A stretch of 47,725 nt of DNA. Source: a virus. Lineage: Duplodnaviria; Heunggongvirae; Uroviricota; Caudoviricetes. Shown here piece by piece: positions 5,921 to 47,725 of the stretch. Every line of letters begins with the position of its first letter. Positions within the stretch are counted from its first letter, which is position 1. The stretch lies in the IMG/VR virus record IMGVR_UViG_2617270974_000008, positions 1-47,725 of that record; one strand, given 5' to 3'. Position numbers and translations under genes: made by a program. A model generated the notes under the pieces. The model worked only from the letters and a program-made list of their open reading frames with translations. It searched no databases and was not told the origin of the DNA.

Positions 5921-8900
5921 TCAGCTAATCGTGATGCCTGCAGTGGCTTTCTTCATCACAACAACCAGCAAATCGCTGATACTTGCTGTGGGATACCAGC
6001 CATTTACCCACCATGCTGATACAGAAAACTCCAGTGTCATTACGCCACTGCCTGCAGGCATATCAATAACACCCGTGTAAATCAGAGTATTATCCAGAGC
6101 CGTTCGGTTATAAATTTCAGCCCCGTTTTTCTTCACTATCAGGCGGCATGACGAATAAGTATCGCTATTCTCCCGTTCATGTCTGGCACCGCTGAAAGCC
6201 ACCGCTGGAATAACAATTTGCCGGTCAAACGGCTGATCGTCATAAACCCTGACGGTAATGGTCCCTGATGGCCACCGCTCCGGTGCACGGGAGTCCCGGG
6301 GGAAAGCTTTGCCCACTGTTTTAACGAGATCGCCTTCAATCTGGTTCGCGGACAGTTTTCCCAGAACCCGACAGTTCTCGTTAATCGTGACGTTGTTGAG
6401 CGTCCCGGAGTTCGCATTCACGCTACCGCTGATATCGGCATTTTTCGCCGTCAGCCGCCCGTCCGGTGTCAGGGAAAATGCCGGAGGATTGCCGCCACTG
6501 GTAATGGTGGGAGCCGTCAGATACTTCAGGAACACTTCGTTCATGAATATCTGGTTGCCCTGCGCCACAAACATCGGCGTTTCATTCCCGTTTGCCGGGT
6601 CAATAAACGCGATACGGTTAGCAGCAACCAGGAACTGGCTCAGTTTGCCTTCCTCCGTATCCTCCATACTAAGGCCAAGCCCCGCGACATAATGCCTGCC
6701 GTCTTCGGTCTGCTCAATTTTGACGCCCCACATGGCATTCCATTTATCGTTGGCGTCCTTCCACTCTTTCGAAAACTCCTCCAGTTTGCTGGCGTTATCC
6801 TCCGTCAGCTCGACTTTTTCCAGCAGCTCCTTGCCGAGATGGGATTCAGTTATCTGGCCTTTGAAAAAATCCAGGTAACCTTCCGCATCATCGCTCGCCC
6901 GACCGACAGCCTCCACGAATGTCGATTTGCCGACGGTGTTCACACTGCGAACGTAAAAATAATAATCATGGCCCGGTTTGATATTGATACTGGCGGCTAT
7001 CCAGTACAGCGCCGTGCCAAGATAGCGGGCTGTGGTTTCAACCTGCCTGATATCCGCAATCCGCTTTTCCGAGAACCAGAACTCAAACTGTACAGTCGGA
7101 TCATAAACCGCAAGATGCGGCGTGGCGGTTATCTGAAAATAGCCCGGCGTCAGCTCAATCCGCGATGGCGCTGCCGGTGCGGCAATCCGGAACGATACCG
7201 ATGCCGGATCGCCCTGCTGCCCCCACGCATTTACCGCCCGGACTGTCAGACTGTAATTTCCCAGCGCCAGTTGCGTGAATCGGTATGTGGTTTCCGTCGT
7301 CCGGGCCGTGCTGACCAGCCGCTCACTGCCGTCATCCGCTGCCACGGTCAGGCGAAGCATAAAGCTCACGCCCTTCACCACCTTCGGCGTATCCCAGCGC
7401 GCCAGCACCTGGTATTCCCCGCTGTCTGCGGTGACTTCTGCGGTCAGGTGTTGCACTGCTGGCGGCGTGACACCATTCACCGTGCCGCTCTGGTCGCCGT
7501 CAAAGTACGCCCCGTTATCCACGATGGCCTCTTTTTCCGGTACATGCTGCACGGCGGTGATGGCATACGTGCCGTCGTCGTTCTCACGGATACTCACGCA
7601 GCGGAACAGGCGCTGGCGCAGCGTCGGCAGCTTCAGCCCCCACACGCTGTATTCAGCAACACCGTCAGGAACACGGCTCACTTTCACCTTCACGCCGTCG
7701 GTGACGGACTGGACCTCCACGCTGACCGGATTGCCACTTCCGTCAACTAGGCTTATCAGCGTGGTACCGGAGGATGGCAGCGTGATTTCACGGTCGAGCG
7801 TCAGCGTCCGGGTCTGGCTGTTCACCGCCAGCACACGACCACCGGTGCTGATACCGGCATAGTCATCATCGCAGATTTCAATAACATCACCCGGGACATG
7901 GCGAAGCCCTTCTGCGCCGACGCTGAAATCCACGGTCTGCGTTTCCAGCAGTTCTGTTTTAATCAGCCACAGCCCGGCGCGGTGTGCCTGCCCCCGGCTG
8001 GTACAGCCAAAAGCATCCATCTTCGTGACGTTACGACCGTAACGGGCAATGGCCTGCGTATCTTCAACAAGCTCTGTCGCCGTCTCCCAGCCGTTGTTCG
8101 GGTCAATCCAGTTCACCTCAACGGCATTATGGCGGTCCTTGAGGGCGCTGAAGCTGTAGCGGAACGGCGCGCCATCATCCGGCATCACCACATTACTGCG
8201 GTTATAGGTCCACACCTTATCCGACGGTCGGTCCTGCACGAACGTCAGCGTCTGCCCGTTCCATACCGGCATACAGCGCATCGCCGAGCAGAAATCACTG
8301 AGCACATCCCACGCCTTGCGCTGTGTGGTCAGGTAAGCGTTACAGGTGATGCGCGGCTCCGTGCCACCAAAACCGTCCGGCACCGACTGCTCGCAATGCT
8401 GGCCGATGACATACAGCGCCCATTTGTCCACATCCGCCGCACCAAGACGTTTCCCCATGCCGTAGCGCGGGTGGGTCAGCATATCCCACAGACACCAGGC
8501 CATGTTGTTGCTGTATGCTGGCTTAAACGTTCCGTCCCAGATACCGCTGTATTGCCGCGTCTGCGGGTTATAGTTCGACGGCACCTGCAGAATGCGCCCG
8601 CGAAGATGATAATTACGGCTCACCTGCTGGCTGCCGAACTGCTCCGAATCCACCTGCACGCCGACCAGTGCCGTGTTCGGGTAGCACTGTTTCACATCGA
8701 TGATTTCGGTGTATGACGACCAGAGCGTTTTGTTCTGCAGCTGGTCTGTGGTGCTGTCCGGTGTCATCCTGCGCATCCGGATATTGAACGGTCGCGGCGG
8801 CAGGTTATCCACCACCACCGAGACCAGATACTGCGACGTGGTTTTGCCCTTAATGGTGATGTCTTTTTCTGTCACCCAGCCACCGTTACGTTGTATCTGA

Positions 8901-29905: not shown

Positions 29906-29940
29906 CAAAATCAATATAAACAGCCCCTCCGGAGAGGGGC
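29906..29940 (-). terminator. Hairpin terminator (GC stem plus T-run on minus strand)
   Basis: gcccctc-cgga-gaggggc stem; minus strand followed by tttatattgatttt. Confidence 0.45.
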
Positions 29941-30333
29941 TGGAGAGTGGCGCTATGTGCCATTGCATGGTGCCGGGTGCCTCCCGGTGAATTCAGTACC
30001 AGCACCTGAATCCGCGATTATCCCATATACCTACTCGCTGATTGCCCCTCCGCACAGGGGGATTCACCATGCCAGTTTCTTTTAACAAACTCCCCGCAAA
30101 CCAGACAACAGTCAACCGCCTGAATTGTGAAGTATTTAAAAATTTCTCCCGCTAACTGATACCCGGCGAACAGTCTGGCGTTTTCTTTTTCAGCAACGGA
30201 AAAGCAACAACCACCACACCTGCCACCAGCACACCGTCAGCCAGCACTGACATTATCCGGCTGCTGCAATGCCATTCACAAAAACAGTAAGCAATCACTT
30301 TTTACCGTAACAGGTGATAATCCAGATATGTAT

Positions 30334-30797: not shown

Positions 30798-30874
30798 TGG
30801 CGCGTTGTACTGGATTCGAACCACTGACCGATTGCTTAGAAGGCAATTGCTCTGTCCTGCTGAGCTAACAACGC
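30798..30874 (-). tRNA. tRNA-Arg (anticodon UCU)
   Basis: 77-nt cloverleaf folded by eye: 7-bp acceptor, anticodon stem ATTGC/GCAAT with loop CTTCTAA, T-loop TTCGAAT, 3' CCA. Confidence 0.85.
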
Positions 30875-30887
30875 AGAATACCGATAA

Positions 30888-30964
30888 TGGACCACCATCG
30901 GGGACCCGAACTCCGCGCAACCAGCTTCGAAAGCTGGCGCTCTTTCCTGATGAGCTAATGGCGG
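30888..30964 (-). tRNA. tRNA-Arg (anticodon UCG as read)
   Basis: 77-nt cloverleaf: anticodon stem CCAGC/GCTGG, loop TTTCGAA, acceptor with one G-U pair, CCA end. Confidence 0.75.
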
Positions 30965-30971
30965 TATGTGA

Positions 30972-31047
30972 TGGTGGCCCTTGCTGGATTTGAACCAGCG
31001 ACCTGGCGATTATGAGTCGCTCGCTCTCACCACTGAGCTAAAGGGCC
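30972..31047 (-). tRNA. tRNA with CAU anticodon (Met or lysidine-type Ile2)
   Basis: 76-nt cloverleaf: acceptor GGCCCTT/AAGGGCC, anticodon loop CTCATAA, T-loop TTCAAAT, CCA end. Confidence 0.85.
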
Positions 31048-33840: not shown

Positions 33841-34938
33841 TTATGGTATTAATCCAGCTGTTCTTGCTTTATTAATATAATTTTTACAGTGGTTAGCCAA
33901 ATACTCTGCAAACTTGCATGGAAGTGCATTTCCTATTATGACGCATACTTTATCCATCAAAGCTGTATCAAACACATAGTTATCAGGAAAAGTCTGTAGT
34001 CTAGCAGCTTCTCGAACAGAAATAGTACGCGTATCCTCAGGATGTCCATATCGCCCACGGCTTAAAGTTGTGCACCCACCTGTAATCGTAGGCGATACGT
34101 CATCCCAAAGCATACGACCATAAACATTACTAAATCCTTTATAGTCGCCTTTATGGCAATCTGGACGGAGTTCTTCGGGAATACACTCCCAAGACATCCC
34201 TGGAACAGCCGCTTGTAACCGCTTTATATTGATCTCAGACAAATCCCTAACAATATGCCAACTCGACAATGGAAACTTCCCTTGCTTCTTAGCCTGTGAA
34301 AGAGTTAAGGGTTTTGGCATATCTCCAATAGCTTCTTTAACAGTTACCCATTTGGGTTTCTCTCTTCCATCCTTAGAGTGTGATCCATCAGGCAATGGGA
34401 TGGCAAATCCTTTTCCTGCCAACAGAACAAGCCTTTTTCTGAACTGTGGTACACCAAAGTCAGCTACTTGCAAAACTCCATAATTAACTATGTAACCAAG
34501 TTTTTTCAATCTCTCAATTACTGGCGAAAGAAGATGATTTCCCCGGGAAGCTAATCCAGGAACATTTTCCATCATGATTGCTGATGGATTGGTTTCTTCA
34601 ACCAACCGTAACATCTCGTTAATCAATAAATTACGAGGGTCCTCCCTTTTATACTTGGCAGTGAGACTAGTAAATCCTTGACATGGCGGGCACGCAGATA
34701 AAAGATCTAAATGTTGCTCAGGGATAAGATTTAGGATATCACTCCCCTTTACAAACCGAATATCTTGAACAAAGAGTTTTGTCTCACGATGATTTGCTTG
34801 GAAAGTAGCGGCGGCATGTGCGTCCAGTTCAACGGCAGCTTTGACATCAAACCCGGCCATTTTTAGTCCCATGGTTAGTCCCCCACCACCGCTAAATAGG
34901 TCAACTGCATTCAAACTGGTCACTGTTTTCTCACTCAT
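33841..34938 (-). CDS. DNA (cytosine-5)-methyltransferase
   Basis: 365 aa; motif I DLFSGGGG, motif IV PPCQGFT, motif VI ENVPGL, motif VIII QFRKRLV, motif X IGNALP; start overlaps upstream gene stop by 8 nt. Confidence 0.9.
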   Translation of the reverse strand: MSEKTVTSLNAVDLFSGGGGLTMGLKMAGFDVKAAVELDAHAAATFQANHRETKLFVQDIRFVKGSDILNLIPEQHLDLLSACPPCQGFTSLTAKYKREDPRNLLINEMLRLVEETNPSAIMMENVPGLASRGNHLLSPVIERLKKLGYIVNYGVLQVADFGVPQFRKRLVLLAGKGFAIPLPDGSHSKDGREKPKWVTVKEAIGDMPKPLTLSQAKKQGKFPLSSWHIVRDLSEINIKRLQAAVPGMSWECIPEELRPDCHKGDYKGFSNVYGRMLWDDVSPTITGGCTTLSRGRYGHPEDTRTISVREAARLQTFPDNYVFDTALMDKVCVIIGNALPCKFAEYLANHCKNYINKARTAGLIP

Positions 34939-37042
34939 TATTTCCCAACTTCAACTGTTCTGCCTCATCCAAGAATTCTTGGTGAGTTTGAGTTGTCCTC
35001 AGCAAGAACCCTGCCCAATCAACGGGTGTTAGGCGTTTTTCTTCGATGTATGCAGTATAAGCTTTACGACGTGCCCCACTCAAGCGCTCCCCATCACTTA
35101 CCAGCGTAACGTGAAAATCAGATGCTATTGATTTAAAATCATTATGTCTCTCATCGTTCAAAAACTCCTCGAATGTTTCGAAGTAATTAATAATACGATC
35201 CATTTCATCATTGGAAATATAATGATGTGGCTTTTTTATTTCAATTATTTGTAATTTTCCATCCTGACTAAACAATACAAAGTCTGGTCTTTTATTTTTT
35301 TTATCAAAATCTATAAGAAATATCTCCTCACCAGTTTTCTTTTTATAAAATTTTTGAAATTCCCTTTTAAGCGTGGACAACGTTTTATTTGCTGTAACTG
35401 GGACCCATTGAGGGTTAACTAGCCACGGAGCGGATGCAATTAGATCTTGTAACTCATCTTCTGCTGTATCCTTTGCGTCTTTTAAAGACTCGAGACGCTC
35501 AATAATCTGAAGACGCTTTTTGACCTTTTGACCAAAACTAACGGTTTCAGCTAGTTGAGCCGTTGCTAAAATATCGTTGAGAACATTGAGCGGTGTATCC
35601 GCTTTACTGGAAGCTTCTATTAACTTCTCATCTAAGGATTGTAATGGTGCTAACATAATACTTAACTGCACTAAATTCTCGAGTGCATCAGGATCATGTA
35701 ATTCATCACCTCGTAAAGATTTACCCAACAACTTGGCTATTTTTTTAGCCTGTGCTCGCATATCCTTTTGACCGGCTCCAGGGTATGCTTGCTCGACCTT
35801 ATCCTCCACTTGCGCTAATTCGAAGAATTGATTCATCATATTATTTCTAAGGGGGTCGCGAGTTATTTTACCCACAAGTAAAATAACTTCTTGCCCCCAA
35901 TTCTGAAATTGCGTTCCTAAATCATCAGACCATAGAATATCCCTTCTATCAGTTTGGATAAGATCTTCTTTTTCGTCTAACCAGTCAGCATGCAACTCAC
36001 CTACCAAATATGAACGTATAGAGTGCTCTCCAGTAAAACCAGCTTTTCTATTAAAAACTGCTGTTTGCGCAGCAAACTTACCTCGGCAATAAATTCTAAC
36101 ACCTGCCATTAACTCGTCCTTATAAGGCTCTTTCGCGTATGCAATCCAACCTAATATCGGGTAAGCTTTCCCTTCATGTTCAAAACCGGCCTTAACAATT
36201 GATGAACGCGTGCCGTCAGGATTAAAAGCCGTATAATCACTTAAATCCGTACAAGAATCTGTCGCAATACTTCCACTCATGGAACGAAATTCAATTTTAG
36301 AGTTAGGCATAACAGGAACAGTAAACTCTCCGACCTCAACTTCATAGTCAGGATTAGACTTTGTTTTCGAAGTATCAATCAGTTTAATATTCCAGTTTTT
36401 ACTCTTCACTCCAAAACGTTGTGAAAGCTGCCGAGATAAATCTTTTATTTCGCTAATTTTTCTATATTCAAAATCACTTAATATTATTTTAGTATAGGTC
36501 CTGTCACTTAGTGTGCCGTCTAAATCCCCAGTTTCCGGTTTATAAGACACTGCAGTATCATCCATTATTTTTTCTTTATCTAGCTGAATATGAGCAACCT
36601 CATACCCTTCCTTTCCATCACGACTGATTTTTTCCCCACCGGCACTTATAATCTCGACCCTTTTACAAACACCAAAAGGTGCTAATTTCCCAACGCCTTT
36701 CCGTCCCATGACTTTGCGGTGAAACACCTTCGAGGTTTCACCTCTTTTTGGATCCTTACGTCTTTCTTTGCCAACAACCAAATAAAAGTTCTGTAGTTCA
36801 TCAGGCGCCATTCCGACGCCATTATCTTCTACTTCTATTGTGACATTTTTTGACCTGACAACACCATCCTGTCTAACAGCCAAGTATTGGCCCATAGGTG
36901 CTTTTATAGTGACATTAGTCGCATCTGCATCGTAACTGTTAGATACTAATTCGGCTATAACAGCATAAGCCCTGTCATATAATTTCACACCTAATTTATC
37001 TACTGTCATCCTTGATATCTGCATTTCATATTGACGCGCCAT
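34931..37042 (-). CDS. GHKL (Bergerat-fold) ATPase fused to C-terminal PD-(D/E)xK-like nuclease motif
   Basis: 703 aa; N-box ELVSNSYDADAT, G1 DNGVGM, G2 GRKGVGKL; C-terminal ...RPDFVLFSQDGKLQIIEIKK (PD...E-x-K); AT-rich codon usage; SD AGGA before ATG. Confidence 0.8.
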   Translation of the reverse strand: MARQYEMQISRMTVDKLGVKLYDRAYAVIAELVSNSYDADATNVTIKAPMGQYLAVRQDGVVRSKNVTIEVEDNGVGMAPDELQNFYLVVGKERRKDPKRGETSKVFHRKVMGRKGVGKLAPFGVCKRVEIISAGGEKISRDGKEGYEVAHIQLDKEKIMDDTAVSYKPETGDLDGTLSDRTYTKIILSDFEYRKISEIKDLSRQLSQRFGVKSKNWNIKLIDTSKTKSNPDYEVEVGEFTVPVMPNSKIEFRSMSGSIATDSCTDLSDYTAFNPDGTRSSIVKAGFEHEGKAYPILGWIAYAKEPYKDELMAGVRIYCRGKFAAQTAVFNRKAGFTGEHSIRSYLVGELHADWLDEKEDLIQTDRRDILWSDDLGTQFQNWGQEVILLVGKITRDPLRNNMMNQFFELAQVEDKVEQAYPGAGQKDMRAQAKKIAKLLGKSLRGDELHDPDALENLVQLSIMLAPLQSLDEKLIEASSKADTPLNVLNDILATAQLAETVSFGQKVKKRLQIIERLESLKDAKDTAEDELQDLIASAPWLVNPQWVPVTANKTLSTLKREFQKFYKKKTGEEIFLIDFDKKNKRPDFVLFSQDGKLQIIEIKKPHHYISNDEMDRIINYFETFEEFLNDERHNDFKSIASDFHVTLVSDGERLSGARRKAYTAYIEEKRLTPVDWAGFLLRTTQTHQEFLDEAEQLKLGNNE

Positions 37043-37618: not shown

Positions 37619-38044
37619 CTACCTAAAACGTCGCCGATAGAACGCCAGCACGCGCTGCATAACTTCGCTCTTCCGGCACTCGCTACAGATTATGTTCTGA
37701 CGCCTGTCATAACGACGTATTTCTCCATCAGGTAATGACCAGATAAGGTCCGGATCAACCGCAGATGGTTTCTTCAGCTTTGCCCTTGAGAGTTTTTTGC
37801 GAGCATTTTGCCAGTCCTTACGCGCCTGTTCAGACGGGAATAACCCGTAACCAGAGTTGTATACATCGCCACTGGCAACCAGCTCTCTGGCGAGAACACT
37901 CATCAGATATCTTGTCGCACCTGTCCTGGCTTCCAGTTGCCGCAACGTCTCGCGACCGCTCAGACGTACAAGTTCAACAACCTGCCCTTTAATTTTTTCC
38001 CGCTCTTCTTGTGTAAATACTTTTGCCATAAGCGCCTCCGGCAA
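37619..38044 (-). CDS. Hypothetical protein
   Basis: 141-aa ORF abutting upstream gene stop; basic C-terminus with CxxC. Confidence 0.5.
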   Translation of the reverse strand: MPEALMAKVFTQEEREKIKGQVVELVRLSGRETLRQLEARTGATRYLMSVLARELVASGDVYNSGYGLFPSEQARKDWQNARKKLSRAKLKKPSAVDPDLIWSLPDGEIRRYDRRQNIICSECRKSEVMQRVLAFYRRRFR

Positions 38045-41431: not shown

Positions 41432-41908
41432 ATGCTTAGTGGTAAAGACTTAGGCCGAGCGATAGAGCAGGCCATTAACAAAAAAATTGCATCAGGAGCC
41501 GTCAAATCAAAGGCGGAAATCGCACGTCATTTCAAAGTCCAACCACCATCAATCCATGACTGGATTAAGAAAGGTTCGATAAGTAAAGACAAACTTCCAG
41601 AACTATGGCGTTTCTTTTCTGATGTGGTTGGTCCAGAGCATTGGGGGCTTAACGAATACCCCATACCAACCCCATCCACTTCAGATACAAAAAGTGAACT
41701 TTTAGACATAAACAGCCTTTATCAAGCCGCCTCTGATGAAAAAAGAGCAATTGTGGCTTTCATCTTATCTGGAAATGCTACGGAGCCTAGTTGGGTTGAT
41801 CATGACGTTCGCGCCTACATTGCCGCAATGGAAATGAAGGTAGCTAACTATCTGAAAAATCAAGAATCAAAACGGAAAAGCCAGAACATCACCAAGACAG
41901 GAACTTAA
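41432..41908 (+). CDS. Prophage repressor (RacR-like; HTH, no S24 peptidase domain)
   Basis: 158 aa; HTH near KAEIARHFKVQPPSIHDWIKKG; divergent from Cro-like gene; no Ala-Gly / Ser...Lys autocleavage motifs seen. Confidence 0.75.
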   Translation: MLSGKDLGRAIEQAINKKIASGAVKSKAEIARHFKVQPPSIHDWIKKGSISKDKLPELWRFFSDVVGPEHWGLNEYPIPTPSTSDTKSELLDINSLYQAASDEKRAIVAFILSGNATEPSWVDHDVRAYIAAMEMKVANYLKNQESKRKSQNITKTGT

Positions 41909-42002: not shown

Positions 42003-42045
42003 TTAGGCATAGCCTATTGACAAGTAATTAGGCATTTCCTATAGT
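42003..42045 (+). promoter_or_regulatory. Left operator/promoter region: operator palindromes overlapping rightward TTGACA-17-TATAGT promoter
   Basis: TTAGGC-ATA-GCCTAt (about 42003-42017) and TTAGGC-ATT-tCCTAt (about 42028-42042) overlap -35 at about 42017-42022 and -10 at about 42040-42045. Confidence 0.55.
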
Positions 42046-42390: not shown

Positions 42391-42711
42391 ATGGAATTTA
42401 AAGATTTACCAGTACCATTCCAGGAAATGGCATCGAATGTGGTTCGCTCTCAACTGGCGACTCTTGACCTGAGTACCGTAGAAAAAGAAACCATCGACAA
42501 TATATCCGGTAACGTACGCCGAGCCTTTATCGGGCTGTACGAAGAGAAGCAGCTCTCTGATAACCAGGATTTACATGAAAAATACTTCCTGGATCTAATG
42601 GACATCATTGATAAGGGGTTTGGCTTGTTAATGAAAAAGAAAGGGATTCGAATAGAACCCCTTGAAAATTACTTTGCAACAAAAAGCATTAATTCTTTTG
42701 ATTCAAAATAA
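42391..42711 (+). CDS. Hypothetical early protein
   Basis: ORF 42379..42711; start at MEFKDLPVPF with GAGG SD; AT-rich. Confidence 0.45.
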   Translation: MEFKDLPVPFQEMASNVVRSQLATLDLSTVEKETIDNISGNVRRAFIGLYEEKQLSDNQDLHEKYFLDLMDIIDKGFGLLMKKKGIRIEPLENYFATKSINSFDSK

Positions 42712-42964
42712 GAGAATTAATTACAGACTTAACATGCTCTTTCTCATGATTGAAGCTCTCATGATTGAAAGTGCCGGGTTGAAGCGAGTCGATATAATCA
42801 ACAAGACTCTGTCGTACGACTTCATTTTTATCCATAACAGATGCAAGAAATGAAATTGCTAAAAGAGTTATATCACTACGCGCCGCAGCATGTTGCAATG
42901 CTTTATCAAAATTATTAATCTGGCGTATCAGGGAGTTAATGATTTCATCATTTTCAGTCGACAT
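42689..42964 (-). CDS. Hypothetical protein, convergent to early-left genes
   Basis: ORF 42689..43177; ATG 42964 (MSTENDEIINSL...) with AGGAGG SD; AT-rich; 3' end overlaps plus-strand gene. Confidence 0.45.
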   Translation of the reverse strand: MSTENDEIINSLIRQINNFDKALQHAAARSDITLLAISFLASVMDKNEVVRQSLVDYIDSLQPGTFNHESFNHEKEHVKSVINSLILNQKN

Positions 42965-43526
42965 TTCACCCTCCTGAGGGTTGGTGATTAAGGAGTTCTC
43001 CACGGGTGAGGTGGAGTGCGTGCGCCGGACACGGGTGAGCATCCGGCACTGACAGTTTACTGAAAGGATATTTCCCTGAAAAGTCAGACCATAACGCGAA
43101 AGCGCACGGCGAGGTAGCTGGTTCATAGATAGCCTGTCGTTAAATTTTCGTCGACCGTGCGCTTCCGGTTGTGGCAATCCGCGAAATGGCGCGGCGGTAA
43201 GTATGGCGGGGTTATTCCTTCCCCCGTTGAGGACACCGGGTTGTCAGGTTGACCATACGCTTAAGTGACAACCCCGCTGCAACGCCCTCTGTTATCAATT
43301 TTCTGGTGACGTTTGGCGGTATCAGTTTTACTCCGTGACTGCTCTGCCGCCCTTTTTAAAGTGAATTTTGTGATGTGGTGAATGCGGCTGAGCGCACACG
43401 GAACAGTTAAAACCAAAAACAGTGTTATGGGTGGATTCTCTGTATCCGGCGTTAATTGTTAACTGGTTAACGTCACCTGGAGGCACCAGGCACCGCATCA
43501 CAAAACTCATTGTTGAGGGCGCGATA

Positions 43527-43715
43527 ATGAAAACGTTATTACCAAACGTTAATACGTCTGAAGGTTGTTTTGAAATTGGTGTCACTATCAGTAATCCTGT
43601 ATTTACTGAAGAGGCCATTAACAAAAGAAAACACGAACGGGAGTTATTAAATAAAGTATGCATTGTTTCAATGCTGGCCCGTTTACGTCTGATGCCAAAA
43701 GGATGTGCACAATGA
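43527..43715 (+). CDS. Small hypothetical early protein
   Basis: ORF 43422..43715; start at MKTLLPNVNTSEG (ATG 43527, GAGGG SD); stop overlaps next ATG. Confidence 0.4.
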   Translation: MKTLLPNVNTSEGCFEIGVTISNPVFTEEAINKRKHERELLNKVCIVSMLARLRLMPKGCAQ

Positions 43716-43903
43716 ATCCAGTATTTGCACTTATTCTGACGGTTTTTCTTGTTTCCGGAGAGCCAGTTGATATTGCAGTCAGTGTTCACAGAACAATGCA
43801 GGAATGTATGGCAGCAGCAACCGAACAGAAAATTCCAGGCAACTGTTATCCGGTCGATAAAGTTATTCACCAGGATAATAACGAAATCCCGGCAGGATTT
43901 TAA
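43712..43903 (+). CDS. Small hypothetical protein with N-terminal hydrophobic/signal-like segment
   Basis: ORF 43658..43903; start at MNPVFALILTVFLVSGEP (ATG 43712, AGGA SD). Confidence 0.45.
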   Translation: MNPVFALILTVFLVSGEPVDIAVSVHRTMQECMAAATEQKIPGNCYPVDKVIHQDNNEIPAGF

Positions 43904-43996
43904 AACAGCACCGTAATAAATATCCAGTTTCATTCTTATATGTCAGCAATGGCAGAGATTTGTTCACCCTTAAATCTGTGATGAGGTTTATCAATA

Positions 43997-46438
43997 ATGA
44001 GCACTGATAAAGAAGAATTTGCACTATATTGCGAAGCAAAAAATGACAAAGTAAGAAAACGCCTAGGAATTAAAGGTGGTTTTTACTGGACTACAGCAAA
44101 AAAATTATCTGTTGCAATCTCCCGCTGCATTACCGCAATGGATGACAACGATTATGATGAAGACGACTTTAAAAAACCCGTCCGCGTCAATTTGCCCGTT
44201 GTTGACGACCTTCCGCCAGAAGGCGTGTTTGATACTGAATTCTGCAACCGCTATGAAAAAGGCGGGAAAGATGGCATCACAATGACATTTATCGGCCCTT
44301 CCCCCTCTGTTCAGGACAAATCAGCCAGCACTGATAATACCAACATCAACGGCGAAGACATGACTGAGATTGAGGAGAGCATGCTTCTACCTGTCTCCGG
44401 TCAGGAACTGCCCATTCGTTGGCTTGCTCAACACGGCAGCGAAAAACCAGTAACGCACGTTTCACGCGACGAACTCCAGGCATTACACATTGCACGGGCT
44501 GAAGAACTACCGGCTGTTACTGCCCTGGCTATTTCGCATAAAACCAGTCTGCTCGACTCGCTGGAGATTCGCGACCTCCACAAACTGGTTCGTGACACTG
44601 ACAAAGTTTTCCCTAATCCTGGTAATTCAGACCTGGGACTAATAACTGCTTTTTTCGAAGCATACCTGGACGCTGACTACACTGATCGGGGTCTGCTGAC
44701 AAAAGAGTGGATGAAAGGAAATCGTGTTTCACGCATCACCCGCACGGCTTCCGGTGCTAATGCTGGCGGTGGGAACAAAACCGATCGCAATCCGAATTTA
44801 GTACACACCCTCGACACACTGGATGTGGAGATTGCAGCAGCCACACTTCCGATGGATTTTAATATTTATGAAATTCCGGGCAGCGTTTATCGTCGCGCAA
44901 AAGAAGTAGTCCTGAAAAAAGAAAGTCCGTTCAAAGAATGGTCCGCAGCACTTCGTGCAACCCCGGGTATTCTGGACTATTCCCGCGCCGCTATTTTTGC
45001 ACTTATCCGAAGCGCACACCCTGAATTTTATCACTACCCGGGACGCCTTCAGGGGTATATCAACGCCTATTTGACGGAAACTGATCACGAGAACCCCAGC
45101 AAGGAAACTCTCACAGCTGCCCGGCATACGCCGGAAAAAGATATCCTGGAAGAAATTAACCGCGAGGTGGTTACTGAGCGTGAAACAGAAGAAGAAAAAC
45201 CACAACCATCTGACGCAATGGCAGGTGAACAGGCAACAACTGAAACAATGGAACCGGATACAACTGAACATTGCCAGAACGCGCAGTCGCTGGATGCTCA
45301 GTCGCAGGTGAGTTCCGCTAACCAAGTAAAAGTCACCGCTGACGAAGTAAACAAAATTATGCAGGCAGCCAATATCAGCCAGCCTGACGCCGATAAGTTA
45401 CTTGCTGTATCGCGTGGTGAATTTGTTGAGGGGATTAGCGACCCTAATGATCCGAAATGGGTCAAGGGGATCCAGACTCGCGATTCTGTGAACCAGAACC
45501 AGCATGAATCGGAACGGAACGACCAAAAAGCGGAACAAAACAGCCCAAATGCGTTACAAAACGAGCCAGAAACGAAACAATCCGAACCAGTAGCGCAACA
45601 GGAACCGGAAAAAGTCTGCACCGCCTGCGGTCAGAGCGGTGGCGGCAACTGCCCTGATTGTGGCGCGGTGATGGGCGACGCAACATACCAGAAAACATTC
45701 GATGAAGAGAATCAGGTTGAAGTTCAGGAAAATGATCCGGAGGAAATGGAAGGCGCTGAACATCCACACAAGGAGAATGCTGGCAGCGCTCAGGACCACG
45801 CCAGCGATAGTAAAACTGGCGAGACGGCAGATCCCTTAATTACGGTGAATGGTCATCACGAAATCACATCCACCAGCAGGACGTGTGACCATCTAATGAT
45901 CGACCTTGAAACCATGGGAAAAAATCCTGATGCCCCGATCATCTCAATAGGTGCAATATTTTTCGATCCGCAAACCGGAGATATGGGACCGGAATTTAGT
46001 AAGACTATCGATCTGGAAACTGCTGGCGGAGTCATTGATCGGGACACCATTAAATGGTGGCTTAAGCAATCACGCGAAGCGCAATCTGCCATTATGACCG
46101 ATGAAATCCCGTTAGATGATGCACTGTTACAATTGCGGGAATTTATCGACGAAAACTCCGGTGAATTTTTTGTTCAGGTCTGGGGAAATGGAGCCAACTT
46201 CGACAACACGATTTTGCGCCGTTCATACGAACGGCAGGGGATCCCCTGCCCGTGGCGTTACTACAACGATCGCGATGTACGCACAATCGTTGAGCTGGGG
46301 AAAGCCATAGACTTCGATGCCAGAACGGCTATTCCATTCGAAGGTGAGCGCCATAATGTACTTGATGACGCTCGTTACCAGGCAAAATACGTTTCAGCTA
46401 TCTGGCAAAAACTGATCCCGAGTCAGGCTGATTTTTAA
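43997..46438 (+). CDS. RecE-like large early protein with C-terminal DnaQ-like DEDDh 3'-5' exonuclease domain
   Basis: 813 aa; C-terminal Exo [10 protein letters not shown], Exo [11 protein letters not shown], Exo [12 protein letters not shown]; CTACG...CPDCG zinc ribbon; acidic linkers; lies between immunity region and xis-int. Confidence 0.8.
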
Positions 46439-46496
46439 TGTTCAACCCTAATTGCCGCTAACCGTATATAGTTAGCGGCGGTTATGAGATATAGCT

Positions 46497-46700
46497 ATGA
46501 GCAGCTTATTTTTAACCGAAGATGAATTGCTAATATTAACGGGCTGCAAATATGCAAGCCACCAGCGAAAATGGTTAATGGAAAACGGGCTTCCGTTCTA
46601 TACCAATCGTAGTGGCAAACCGATTGTCAGCCGGGATCTATTTACCTGCAATAAAACTTTACCACCACGCGAGGTAGAGCCGAATTTTGGTGCGATCTGA
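46497..46700 (+). CDS. xis: Excisionase-like protein (DUF4224-type)
   Basis: 67 aa; stop overlaps int ATG (TGATG); family from memory. Confidence 0.55.
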   Translation: MSSLFLTEDELLILTGCKYASHQRKWLMENGLPFYTNRSGKPIVSRDLFTCNKTLPPREVEPNFGAI

Positions 46701-47725
46701 TGGGAAGACGAAGGAAAAATCCTGAACACGAAAAATTACCTCCAAATGTATACCCAAATAAATATAGTTATGTATGGAAACCAACATCCAGAGAATCTGT
46801 AACACTAACCGCCATCAAGGATGGTTTAGCTGCTTTATGGAAAAAGTATGAGGAAACTGTAAATAATCGCGATCGTGCAATGACATTCGGTCGCTTGTGG
46901 GAAAAATTCCTCGCCAGCGCCTATTACAGTGACCTCAGTCCAAGAACACAAAAAGATTATCTGCAACATCAAAAAAAGTTGCTTGCCGTATTCGGTAAGG
47001 TGCCGGCAGATTCCATAAAACCAGAACACATCCGTCGATACATGGACAAGAGAGGGGAACAGAGTAAAACGCAAGCCAACCATGAAAAAAGCAGTATGTC
47101 CCGCGTTTACAGTTGGGGGTATGAGCGAGGGTACGTGAAGGCTAACCCATGTGCAGGTGTAAGTAAATTCAAGGCCAAAAACCGCGAACGATATGTAACC
47201 GACAAAGAATACCAGGCAGTATTAAGCGTTGCACCTCTTCCTGTTTTTATCGCAATGGAAATTGCCTATCTGTGTGCAGCGAGGGTTTCCGATGTGTTAT
47301 CGCTGAAATGGGAGCAGATTGGAAACGACGGGATCTTTATCCAGCAAGGGAAAACAGGAAAAAAACAGATAAAAGCATGGAGTCCACGATTACAGGCGGC
47401 GATCGAAAAAGCAAAACAGTTACCAACATCCGCCTATGTAATCAGCAATCAATACGGCAACCGATATATGTACAAAGGCTTTAACGAAATGTGGGTAGAA
47501 GCAAGAAATCGCGCAGGCAAAATTTCAGGTATTTTAACCGACTTCACCTTTCATGATCTGAAGGCGAAAGGAATTTCAGACTATGAAGGAAGCAGTCGGG
47601 ATAAGCAACTTTTCTCTGGTCACAAAACCGAGGGGCAAGTGCTAATCTATGACAGGAAGGTTAAAGTTTCACCGACACTTGATGTCCCGTTACCTGAAAA
47701 TATTCCAAGAAAATATTCCAAGTAA
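46700..47725 (+). CDS. int: Tyrosine integrase (lambda Int family)
   Basis: 341 aa; MGRRR N-terminus as lambda Int; C-terminal H-x-L-K ... GHK ... Y catalytic residues; stop at window end. Confidence 0.9.
   Translation: MGRRRKNPEHEKLPPNVYPNKYSYVWKPTSRESVTLTAIKDGLAALWKKYEETVNNRDRAMTFGRLWEKFLASAYYSDLSPRTQKDYLQHQKKLLAVFGKVPADSIKPEHIRRYMDKRGEQSKTQANHEKSSMSRVYSWGYERGYVKANPCAGVSKFKAKNRERYVTDKEYQAVLSVAPLPVFIAMEIAYLCAARVSDVLSLKWEQIGNDGIFIQQGKTGKKQIKAWSPRLQAAIEKAKQLPTSAYVISNQYGNRYMYKGFNEMWVEARNRAGKISGILTDFTFHDLKAKGISDYEGSSRDKQLFSGHKTEGQVLIYDRKVKVSPTLDVPLPENIPRKYSK

Follow-up and report, generated by a model that had tools for sequence, protein, structure and literature searches.

A phage RecE homologue with a predicted DEDDh exonuclease domain and no recognizable annealase

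Two-component phage recombinases such as Red and RecET pair an exonuclease with an annealase. In the Rac prophage the exonuclease is RecE (exodeoxyribonuclease VIII, Escherichia coli K-12 b1350), whose catalytic PD-(D/E)XK domain (DUF3799) occupies residues 615–850 and whose N-terminal region is labelled a domain of unknown function in a 2023 review (PMC11611040). Another exonuclease family, DEDDh, includes DexA of phage T4. A 2025 paper describes both DexA and EcD (‘HREX’), its stand-alone homologue in E. coli, as DNA exonucleases (PMC12153337). In the same work, EcD cuts T4 DNA modified with 5-hydroxymethylcytosine (5hmC), does not cut unmodified DNA and protects E. coli from T4, and DexA is described as taking part in the repair of double-strand breaks in T4 (PMC12153337).

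Here we examine a gene in which parts of these two families are joined. It lies at 43997–46438 on the + strand of a 47,725-nucleotide (nt) stretch of Caudoviricetes DNA (IMG/VR record IMGVR_UViG_2617270974_000008, positions 1 to 47,725; hereafter the window), starts with ATG and encodes 813 amino acids (aa), as an earlier note made from the sequence had described. A RecE-family N-terminal scaffold and a DEDDh domain of the DexA/Rv2179c family meet at a junction at nt 45840. The active site of the DEDDh domain is intact, no annealase is recognizable, and the gene closes an operon immediately ahead of the excisionase (xis) and integrase (int) genes. The observation in the earlier note is thus confirmed, and its interpretation is partly supported.

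Architecture of the mosaic exonuclease

BLASTP aligned residues 58–616 of the protein with residues 50–592 of Rac RecE at 59% identity and found no similarity beyond residue 616. The NCBIfam exoVIII equivalog model behaved in the same way, matching residues 1–616 to model positions 1–603 of 877 with a score of 945 against a cutoff of 1269. Pfam placed PF06630 (‘Enterobacterial exodeoxyribonuclease VIII’) at residues 57–189 (E = 6.6e-36) and gave no DUF3799 match, whereas RecE itself has one. Because the protein shares this identity with the N-terminal part of RecE and lacks the RecE nuclease domain, we regard it as a genuine RecE homologue with a different catalytic domain. The earlier note had said that the gene sits in the RecE position; the position does correspond to that in Rac, close to where the early-left operon approaches int, but that wording understated a relationship that extends over some 600 residues and includes the PF06630 region, the acidic linkers and a zinc ribbon.

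An AlphaFold2 model built with 80–90 homologues shows residues 1–395 (nt 43997–45181), a part common to RecE, as a confidently folded domain (mean predicted local distance difference test score (pLDDT) of 91.7), for which a Foldseek search with the full-length model returned no match of known structure. An acidic, mostly disordered linker follows (nt 45182–45616), with one short helical element at residues 448–472; pLDDT falls below 50 at residues 400–463 and 490–537, the predicted disordered acidic segments. The zinc ribbon (residues 541–564, nt 45617–45688; cysteines C541, C544, C552 and C555) is kept in Rac RecE and also appears as a small ribbon in the model. A second acidic linker (nt 45689–45889) contains the junction and leads into the DEDDh domain. 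The CxxC...CxxC ribbon and long acidic linkers that the earlier note had placed ahead of the nuclease are therefore present, the linkers beside the ribbon having net charges of −9, −6 and −13.

The C-terminal domain (residues 632–813, nt 45890–46435) matches PF16473 (Rv2179c-like 3′–5′ exoribonuclease) at residues 632–803 with E = 2e-66 and 223.5 bits against a curated cutoff of 27. The match covers profile positions 2–177 of 177 and hence the full length of the family. All three DEDDh motifs are present (D636-L-E638-T-M-G, N-G-A-N-F-D736 and H786-x4-D791), and D636, E638, D736, H786 and D791 align with the five catalytic residues of T4 DexA in motifs Exo I, II and III. These residues are kept in 13–14 of 14 representatives of 50%-identity clusters, and also in almost every close relative. 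The C terminus is consequently of the DEDDh (DnaQ-family) 3′–5′ type that the earlier note had read from the motifs, with an expected polarity opposite to that of the PD-(D/E)XK domain of RecE, and the Pfam search did not place it in the PD-(D/E)XK class.

When a profile of the RecE-linked DEDDh subfamily was compared with the Protein Data Bank (PDB), T4 DexA was found (8KEL, E = 1.8e-16) and no further chain matched at E ≤ 0.01, including Rv2179c. On this profile evidence, DexA is the closest solved relative of the domain (PDB 8KEL/8KEN), although it is 24% identical, free-standing at 227 aa and has extra loops. Foldseek matches with the full-length model were weak by E-value and fell only within the DEDDh domain (Orn, RNase AS/Rv2179c and REXO2). 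Mycobacterium tuberculosis Rv2179c/RNase AS (PDB 4HEC, 6S0M) gives PF16473 its name and is among these weak structural matches; it is an RNA exonuclease with no phage context.

EcD belongs to the same family. Using the published EcD primer (PMC12153337) as a query against viral contigs, we recovered a 189-aa protein that starts MIDTETLGNG, has the reported A78 and ends ...TTPFLNI, one base off the primer. This EcD-like protein is 39% identical to the window domain, compared with 24% for DexA; it differs in standing alone, without the RecE scaffold. We observed EcD-like stand-alone genes at six loci (L089, L094, L104, L105, L107 and L110; 6401–6991, −, in L110). At the one locus examined, L110, the gene lies beside a Dam-like methylase gene in an element that we read as P2/186-like. 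Because an integrase and a cI-like repressor are adjacent, the reported ‘bacterial defence’ gene EcD looks prophage-borne, at least in L110.

The Dam-like methyltransferase that adjoins the EcD-like gene (L110 5187–6167, −; also in L105 and L107) ends in the RecE-type ribbon motif C..CG..GG..CPDCG.V.GDATY. A tblastn search of phage genomes found this motif in RecE-family proteins, in Dam methylases (Enterobacter phiT5282H, Salmonella SW3/SW5/SI7 and Klebsiella phages, which we take to be P2-like) and in hypothetical proteins of Aeromonas phages. From these sequences, the ribbon looks like a portable module carried by three kinds of DNA enzyme, at the C terminus in the case of the Dam methyltransferases.

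Stand-alone E. coli database entries of 180–183 aa were considered as a free form of the domain or as products of an internal start. We rejected both possibilities: there is no Shine–Dalgarno sequence or other ribosome-binding site ahead of M634, and the entries of the one cluster checked (P0095) are pieces, cut at contig ends or by frameshifts, of the full-length gene that lies at that locus. In some E. coli genomes (L113, 737–3127), frameshifts break the exonuclease gene into open reading frames (ORFs) of 456, 157 and 183 aa, and the 183-aa ‘3′–5′ exoribonuclease’ entries derive from such frameshift fragments or from contig ends. Genuine stand-alone DEDDh forms were found in other genera.

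A second fused form resembles the window protein over a different range. The exonuclease of the Tritos/mEp460/Qin ydfE type shares the middle region, the ribbon and the DEDDh domain (about 70% identity over aa 245–822, with a near-identical C-terminal half) and the arrangement dicB–ydfD–exonuclease–xis–int, but its own head, the first approximately 245 residues, is not related to that of RecE. The pseudogene ydfE of the K-12 Qin prophage (L200 3579–4499) corresponds to the first 256 aa of the 823-aa Tritos exonuclease (L085 3141–5609) at 99% identity, cut by IS2. We had considered ydfE as a remnant of a RecE-like N terminus and rejected this, as it has no similarity to the window protein and is a Tritos-type head. 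Since the two heads are unrelated, the same DEDDh tail can follow at least two different N-terminal parts.

Literature searches found no papers on PF16473, no phage-related work on Rv2179c and none that combined DexA, prophages and defence. An ISG20/TONDO preprint was set aside because it concerns a different DEDDh clade.

Exchange of the C-terminal cassette and its frequency

The scaffold is shared with viral loci of the RecE + RecT type. In blastn comparisons with three of these (L065, L076 and L072), the window was 92–95% identical over 43970–45840, at which point homology stopped. The break falls at aa 615, in the sequence ...GETADP(L/V)I of the linker that precedes the catalytic domain. 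The PD-(D/E)XK nuclease and its RecT partner are missing together from the window, as are ralR, rcbA and racC of Rac. The suggestion in the earlier note of a domain-swapped protein is thus strongly supported: as these alignments read, the C-terminal cassette of RecE, consisting of the PD-(D/E)XK domain and recT, is replaced by a single DEDDh domain, with xis and int directly after it.

The same contrast recurs among 80 IMG/VR loci with an N terminus at least 94% identical to that of the window. The DEDDh C terminus is present in 63, none of which has RecT. A Rac-type PD-(D/E)XK C terminus is found in seven, each with RecT directly downstream (7/7), and a second PD-(D/E)XK (DUF3799) C terminus in five, of which L072, the only one examined, has a RecT-family gene of 350 aa. 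The remaining five are truncated by contig ends or retain the N terminus only, and an annealase is not assessable in them. The second PDDEXK-like nuclease, which constitutes a third cassette (L072 5830–10036; also L075, L077 and L080), is frameshifted in L072. The ORF that comes next after a DEDDh gene, 56–79 nt downstream, is of excisionase size in 57 of 58 loci; at least five sequence types occur at this place, followed by differing integrases.

Beyond these near-identical loci, an N-terminal homology search gave only identical partial E. coli entries, and 50%-identity representatives were used instead. The RecE N-terminal family comprises 265 such clusters among 1.84 billion proteins. Its 79 long members include 15 with a DEDDh tail, 22 with a PD-(D/E)XK tail and 42 without a recognizable catalytic tail; a Pfam scan of the 36 longest of these 42 gave no additional catalytic domain type. 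In 22 of 36 comparisons the nearest N-terminal neighbour carries the same type of cassette, where chance alone would give 49%. As N-terminal lineages carry either type almost randomly, the exchange of cassettes has happened repeatedly.

We searched for an annealase at several levels. The stop codon of the exonuclease gene and xis (46497–46700) are separated by a gap of 58 nt, in which the earlier note had seen no RecT-, Bet- or Erf-like gene. Across the window, six-frame phmmer searches found no RecT (two types), Bet, Erf, lambda Exo, RecE nuclease domain, Abc2 or RacC at E ≤ 10, and Gam gave a noise-level antisense match only. Among the products of the replication, nin and early-left regions, Pfam and PHROG recognized O-like and DnaC-like replication proteins, a Ren-like protein, an HNH/DUF968 protein, RusA and Q, none of them an annealase; nor is any annotated in a 98.8%-identical prophage. 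An overlooked annealase near the gene, which the earlier note had named as a reason to doubt its reading, did not emerge from any of these searches. Among 30 fused homologues from other Enterobacterales species, RecT, Bet, Erf and Gam occur in none within 6 kb (0/30); stand-alone DEDDh homologues have Erf nearby in 5 of 50 cases.

The rarity implied by the earlier note proved wrong. Across 5426 complete E. coli genomes, a 543-nt DEDDh segment is present in 4052 (about 75%) at 8111 places, with up to seven per genome, compared with about 1750 genomes (32%) and 1841 places for the segment spanning the Rac recE nuclease and recT. The whole exonuclease gene occurs at ≥80% coverage in 1245 genomes. 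The DEDDh form is therefore the majority form in E. coli prophages, and it is already annotated: the best-matching copies listed in RefSeq E. coli genomes are named ‘exonuclease’ or ‘3′–5′ exonuclease’. Phage records often call the gene ‘exodeoxyribonuclease VIII’, a misleading label because the catalytic domain of exodeoxyribonuclease VIII is absent from the protein. Common and already catalogued as it is, the gene is not a new kind of system but an uncharacterized variant within a known family.

Enterobacterial-type copies of the exonuclease domain, 53–99% identical to the query, were also seen on contigs labelled as Veillonella parvula, Geobacteraceae and Actinomycetes metagenome-assembled genomes, and on an isolate assembly of Chryseobacterium sp. 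(L118, L137, L158 and L191). These taxon labels are likely binning or contamination errors.

These counts bear on the role of the scaffold. It more often bears an annealase-free exonuclease of opposite polarity than the nuclease of RecE, and cassettes have been exchanged repeatedly; this excludes a role confined to 5′ resection or to the loading of RecT. This constrains the role of the RecE N terminus, narrows the hypotheses about it and yields a natural pair of alleles. It also draws attention to a predicted exonuclease that roughly 75% of the complete E. coli genomes carry, and assigns EcD, the ‘bacterial defence’ exonuclease, to a prophage-like element in at least one case.

Operon position and possible functions

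The exonuclease gene ends a repressor-controlled operon. A racR-like repressor gene (41432–41908, from annotation) is followed by a promoter-like site (TTGACA-17-TATAGT, 11/12 consensus, 42017–42045, +; found by consensus scan only), a DUF1391/ydfA-like gene, the small RNA (sRNA) DicF (43301–43352, +; Rfam), dicB (43422–43715, +; Pfam match from aa 36), a DUF1482/ydfD homologue (43658–43903, +; Pfam), the exonuclease gene, xis (DUF4224; 46497–46700, +) and a tyrosine integrase gene that runs off the end of the window (46700–47725, +). This layout is that of the dicB operon of the K-12 Qin prophage, and phage genomes in public databases, Tritos and vB_EcoS-640R1 among them, show the same arrangement. 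The same consensus scan found no promoter-like site directly upstream of the exonuclease gene. Because this gene is the last of the operon and has no promoter-like site of its own, expression after induction seems likelier than expression in lysogens, in which the gene is probably silent.

A stable hairpin lies between the exonuclease stop codon and xis (46449–46486, +; −21 kcal/mol, z = −4.1). Loci with unrelated xis modules have a hairpin of another sequence at the same spot, after the common TAATGTTCAAC, an observation that hints at a structural signal conserved in this gap, or at a boundary of recombination.

We lean towards a DNA 3′-end exonuclease that acts by itself and is delivered by the RecE scaffold after induction. 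The DEDDh domain would be a metal-dependent 3′–5′ exonuclease on DNA 3′ ends, as are its nearest characterized relatives, T4 DexA and EcD, and would be made only after prophage induction or on infection, from the last gene of the dicF–dicB early-left operon. The scaffold may bring this nuclease to the place or partner to which it brings the nuclease of RecE; if it brings either nuclease to the same target, its role would be independent of nuclease polarity and of RecT. The enzyme would then trim or degrade DNA ends alone and not as half of an exonuclease–annealase recombinase such as Red or RecET, from which the window differs both in its nuclease family, of opposite polarity, and in having no annealase that we could find. 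Candidate purposes are the processing of phage replication or recombination intermediates, the breakdown of host or competitor DNA, and counter-defence.

Several points weigh against this proposal. The AlphaFold2 model of the DEDDh domain reaches only moderate confidence. Expression confined to induction is argued from gene order and a consensus promoter scan. The annealase searches relied on Pfam, PHROG and single-sequence phmmer, so that a novel annealase among the hypothetical proteins would escape them. Finally, the Pfam family is named after an RNA exonuclease and the fold search matches oligoribonucleases, which makes RNA a possible substrate. An enzyme acting on the 3′ ends of host or phage RNA, as Rv2179c/RNase AS would suggest, nevertheless seems highly improbable to us, given that the sequence profile finds the DNA enzyme DexA in the PDB and not Rv2179c, that DNA is the substrate of EcD, its nearest relative among the E. 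coli proteins tested, and that the scaffold is common to a double-stranded DNA exonuclease, RecE.

The gene might instead serve superinfection exclusion, degrading the incoming 5hmC DNA of T-even phages and so protecting the lysogen, in the way described for EcD. The activity of EcD on T4 DNA described above and its greater similarity to the window domain, relative to DexA, speak for this, and the entry of phages is reportedly blocked by other dicB-operon products. We nonetheless find such a role unlikely. The residues proposed for 5hmC recognition in DexA are not kept in the window protein, which has Y756 opposite W152, and K or a gap opposite D169 (the alignment of the D169 loop being uncertain); the gene ends a lytic operon under repressor control, without a promoter-like site of its own; the 813-aa protein matches no defence family in PADLOC-DB v2 at E ≤ 0.01; and the EcD data come from plasmid over-expression. 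We are equally doubtful of a recombination or repair nuclease that works with host RecA/RecFOR or with an unrecognized phage annealase, for example by trimming 3′ flaps or blunt ends. DexA trims such ends in T4 intron homing. The occupation of the exo/recE slot by a gene that keeps the whole RecE scaffold fits this role, as do the RusA resolvase of the phage and the part played by DexA in break repair (PMC12153337), but a 3′–5′ exonuclease degrades the 3′ tails on which annealases and RecA depend. Both PD-(D/E)XK cassettes come with RecT-family genes (one locus examined for the second type), whereas an annealase is lacking from all 63 close DEDDh loci and all 30 fused forms from other species, and this systematic absence makes the role less likely.

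Counter-defence during lytic growth, in which the nuclease would remove retron multicopy single-stranded DNA (msDNA), restriction-generated ends or the like, has a precedent in the scaffold itself: RecE degrades retron msDNA, and the same authors describe it as an anti-restriction function (bioRxiv 10.1101/2020.06.22.160242). Early lytic expression, as we predict it, would suit this purpose, and the ribbon is common to phage Dam methylases, another anti-restriction class. We consider it improbable, however, as no known anti-defence family contains a DEDDh domain of this type and racC, the retron-blocking partner of recE, was not found in the window. The anti-defence or host-takeover nuclease that the earlier note offered as its other reading is speculative.

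A bolder idea, which we think unlikely, is that the RecE N-terminal domain and ribbon form a portable targeting module that docks different DNA enzymes onto one target, the dominant DEDDh form being a nuclease of phage warfare (exclusion or counter-defence) and not a recombination enzyme. The shared target may be DNA ends, the replisome, a host nuclease or a defence complex, and the cargo may comprise 5′–3′ exonucleases, 3′–5′ exonucleases and, by means of the ribbon alone, the Dam methylases of P2-like phages. If so, the textbook RecET pair would be a minority use of the scaffold.

Other genes in the window

Where Rac has sieB, the window has a 162-aa ORF (42689–43177, −) with no Pfam, PHROG or PADLOC match. 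A gene for a Ren-like exclusion protein (DUF977, phrog_142; 37619–38044, −) adjoins the replication genes. Between the replication-side and Q-side (nin-type) genes, a C5 cytosine methyltransferase gene (33841–34938, −) overlaps that of a 703-aa protein (34931–37042, −), whose N terminus matches models of type II restriction enzymes and whose C terminus gives a weak SduA/DUF4263-like match; the two are likely a restriction–modification or defence cargo pair. Between the lysis region and the Q gene lie an STnc100 sRNA and three tRNA genes, Arg-tct, Arg-tcg and Met-cat (29912–30101, −, and 30798–31047, −).

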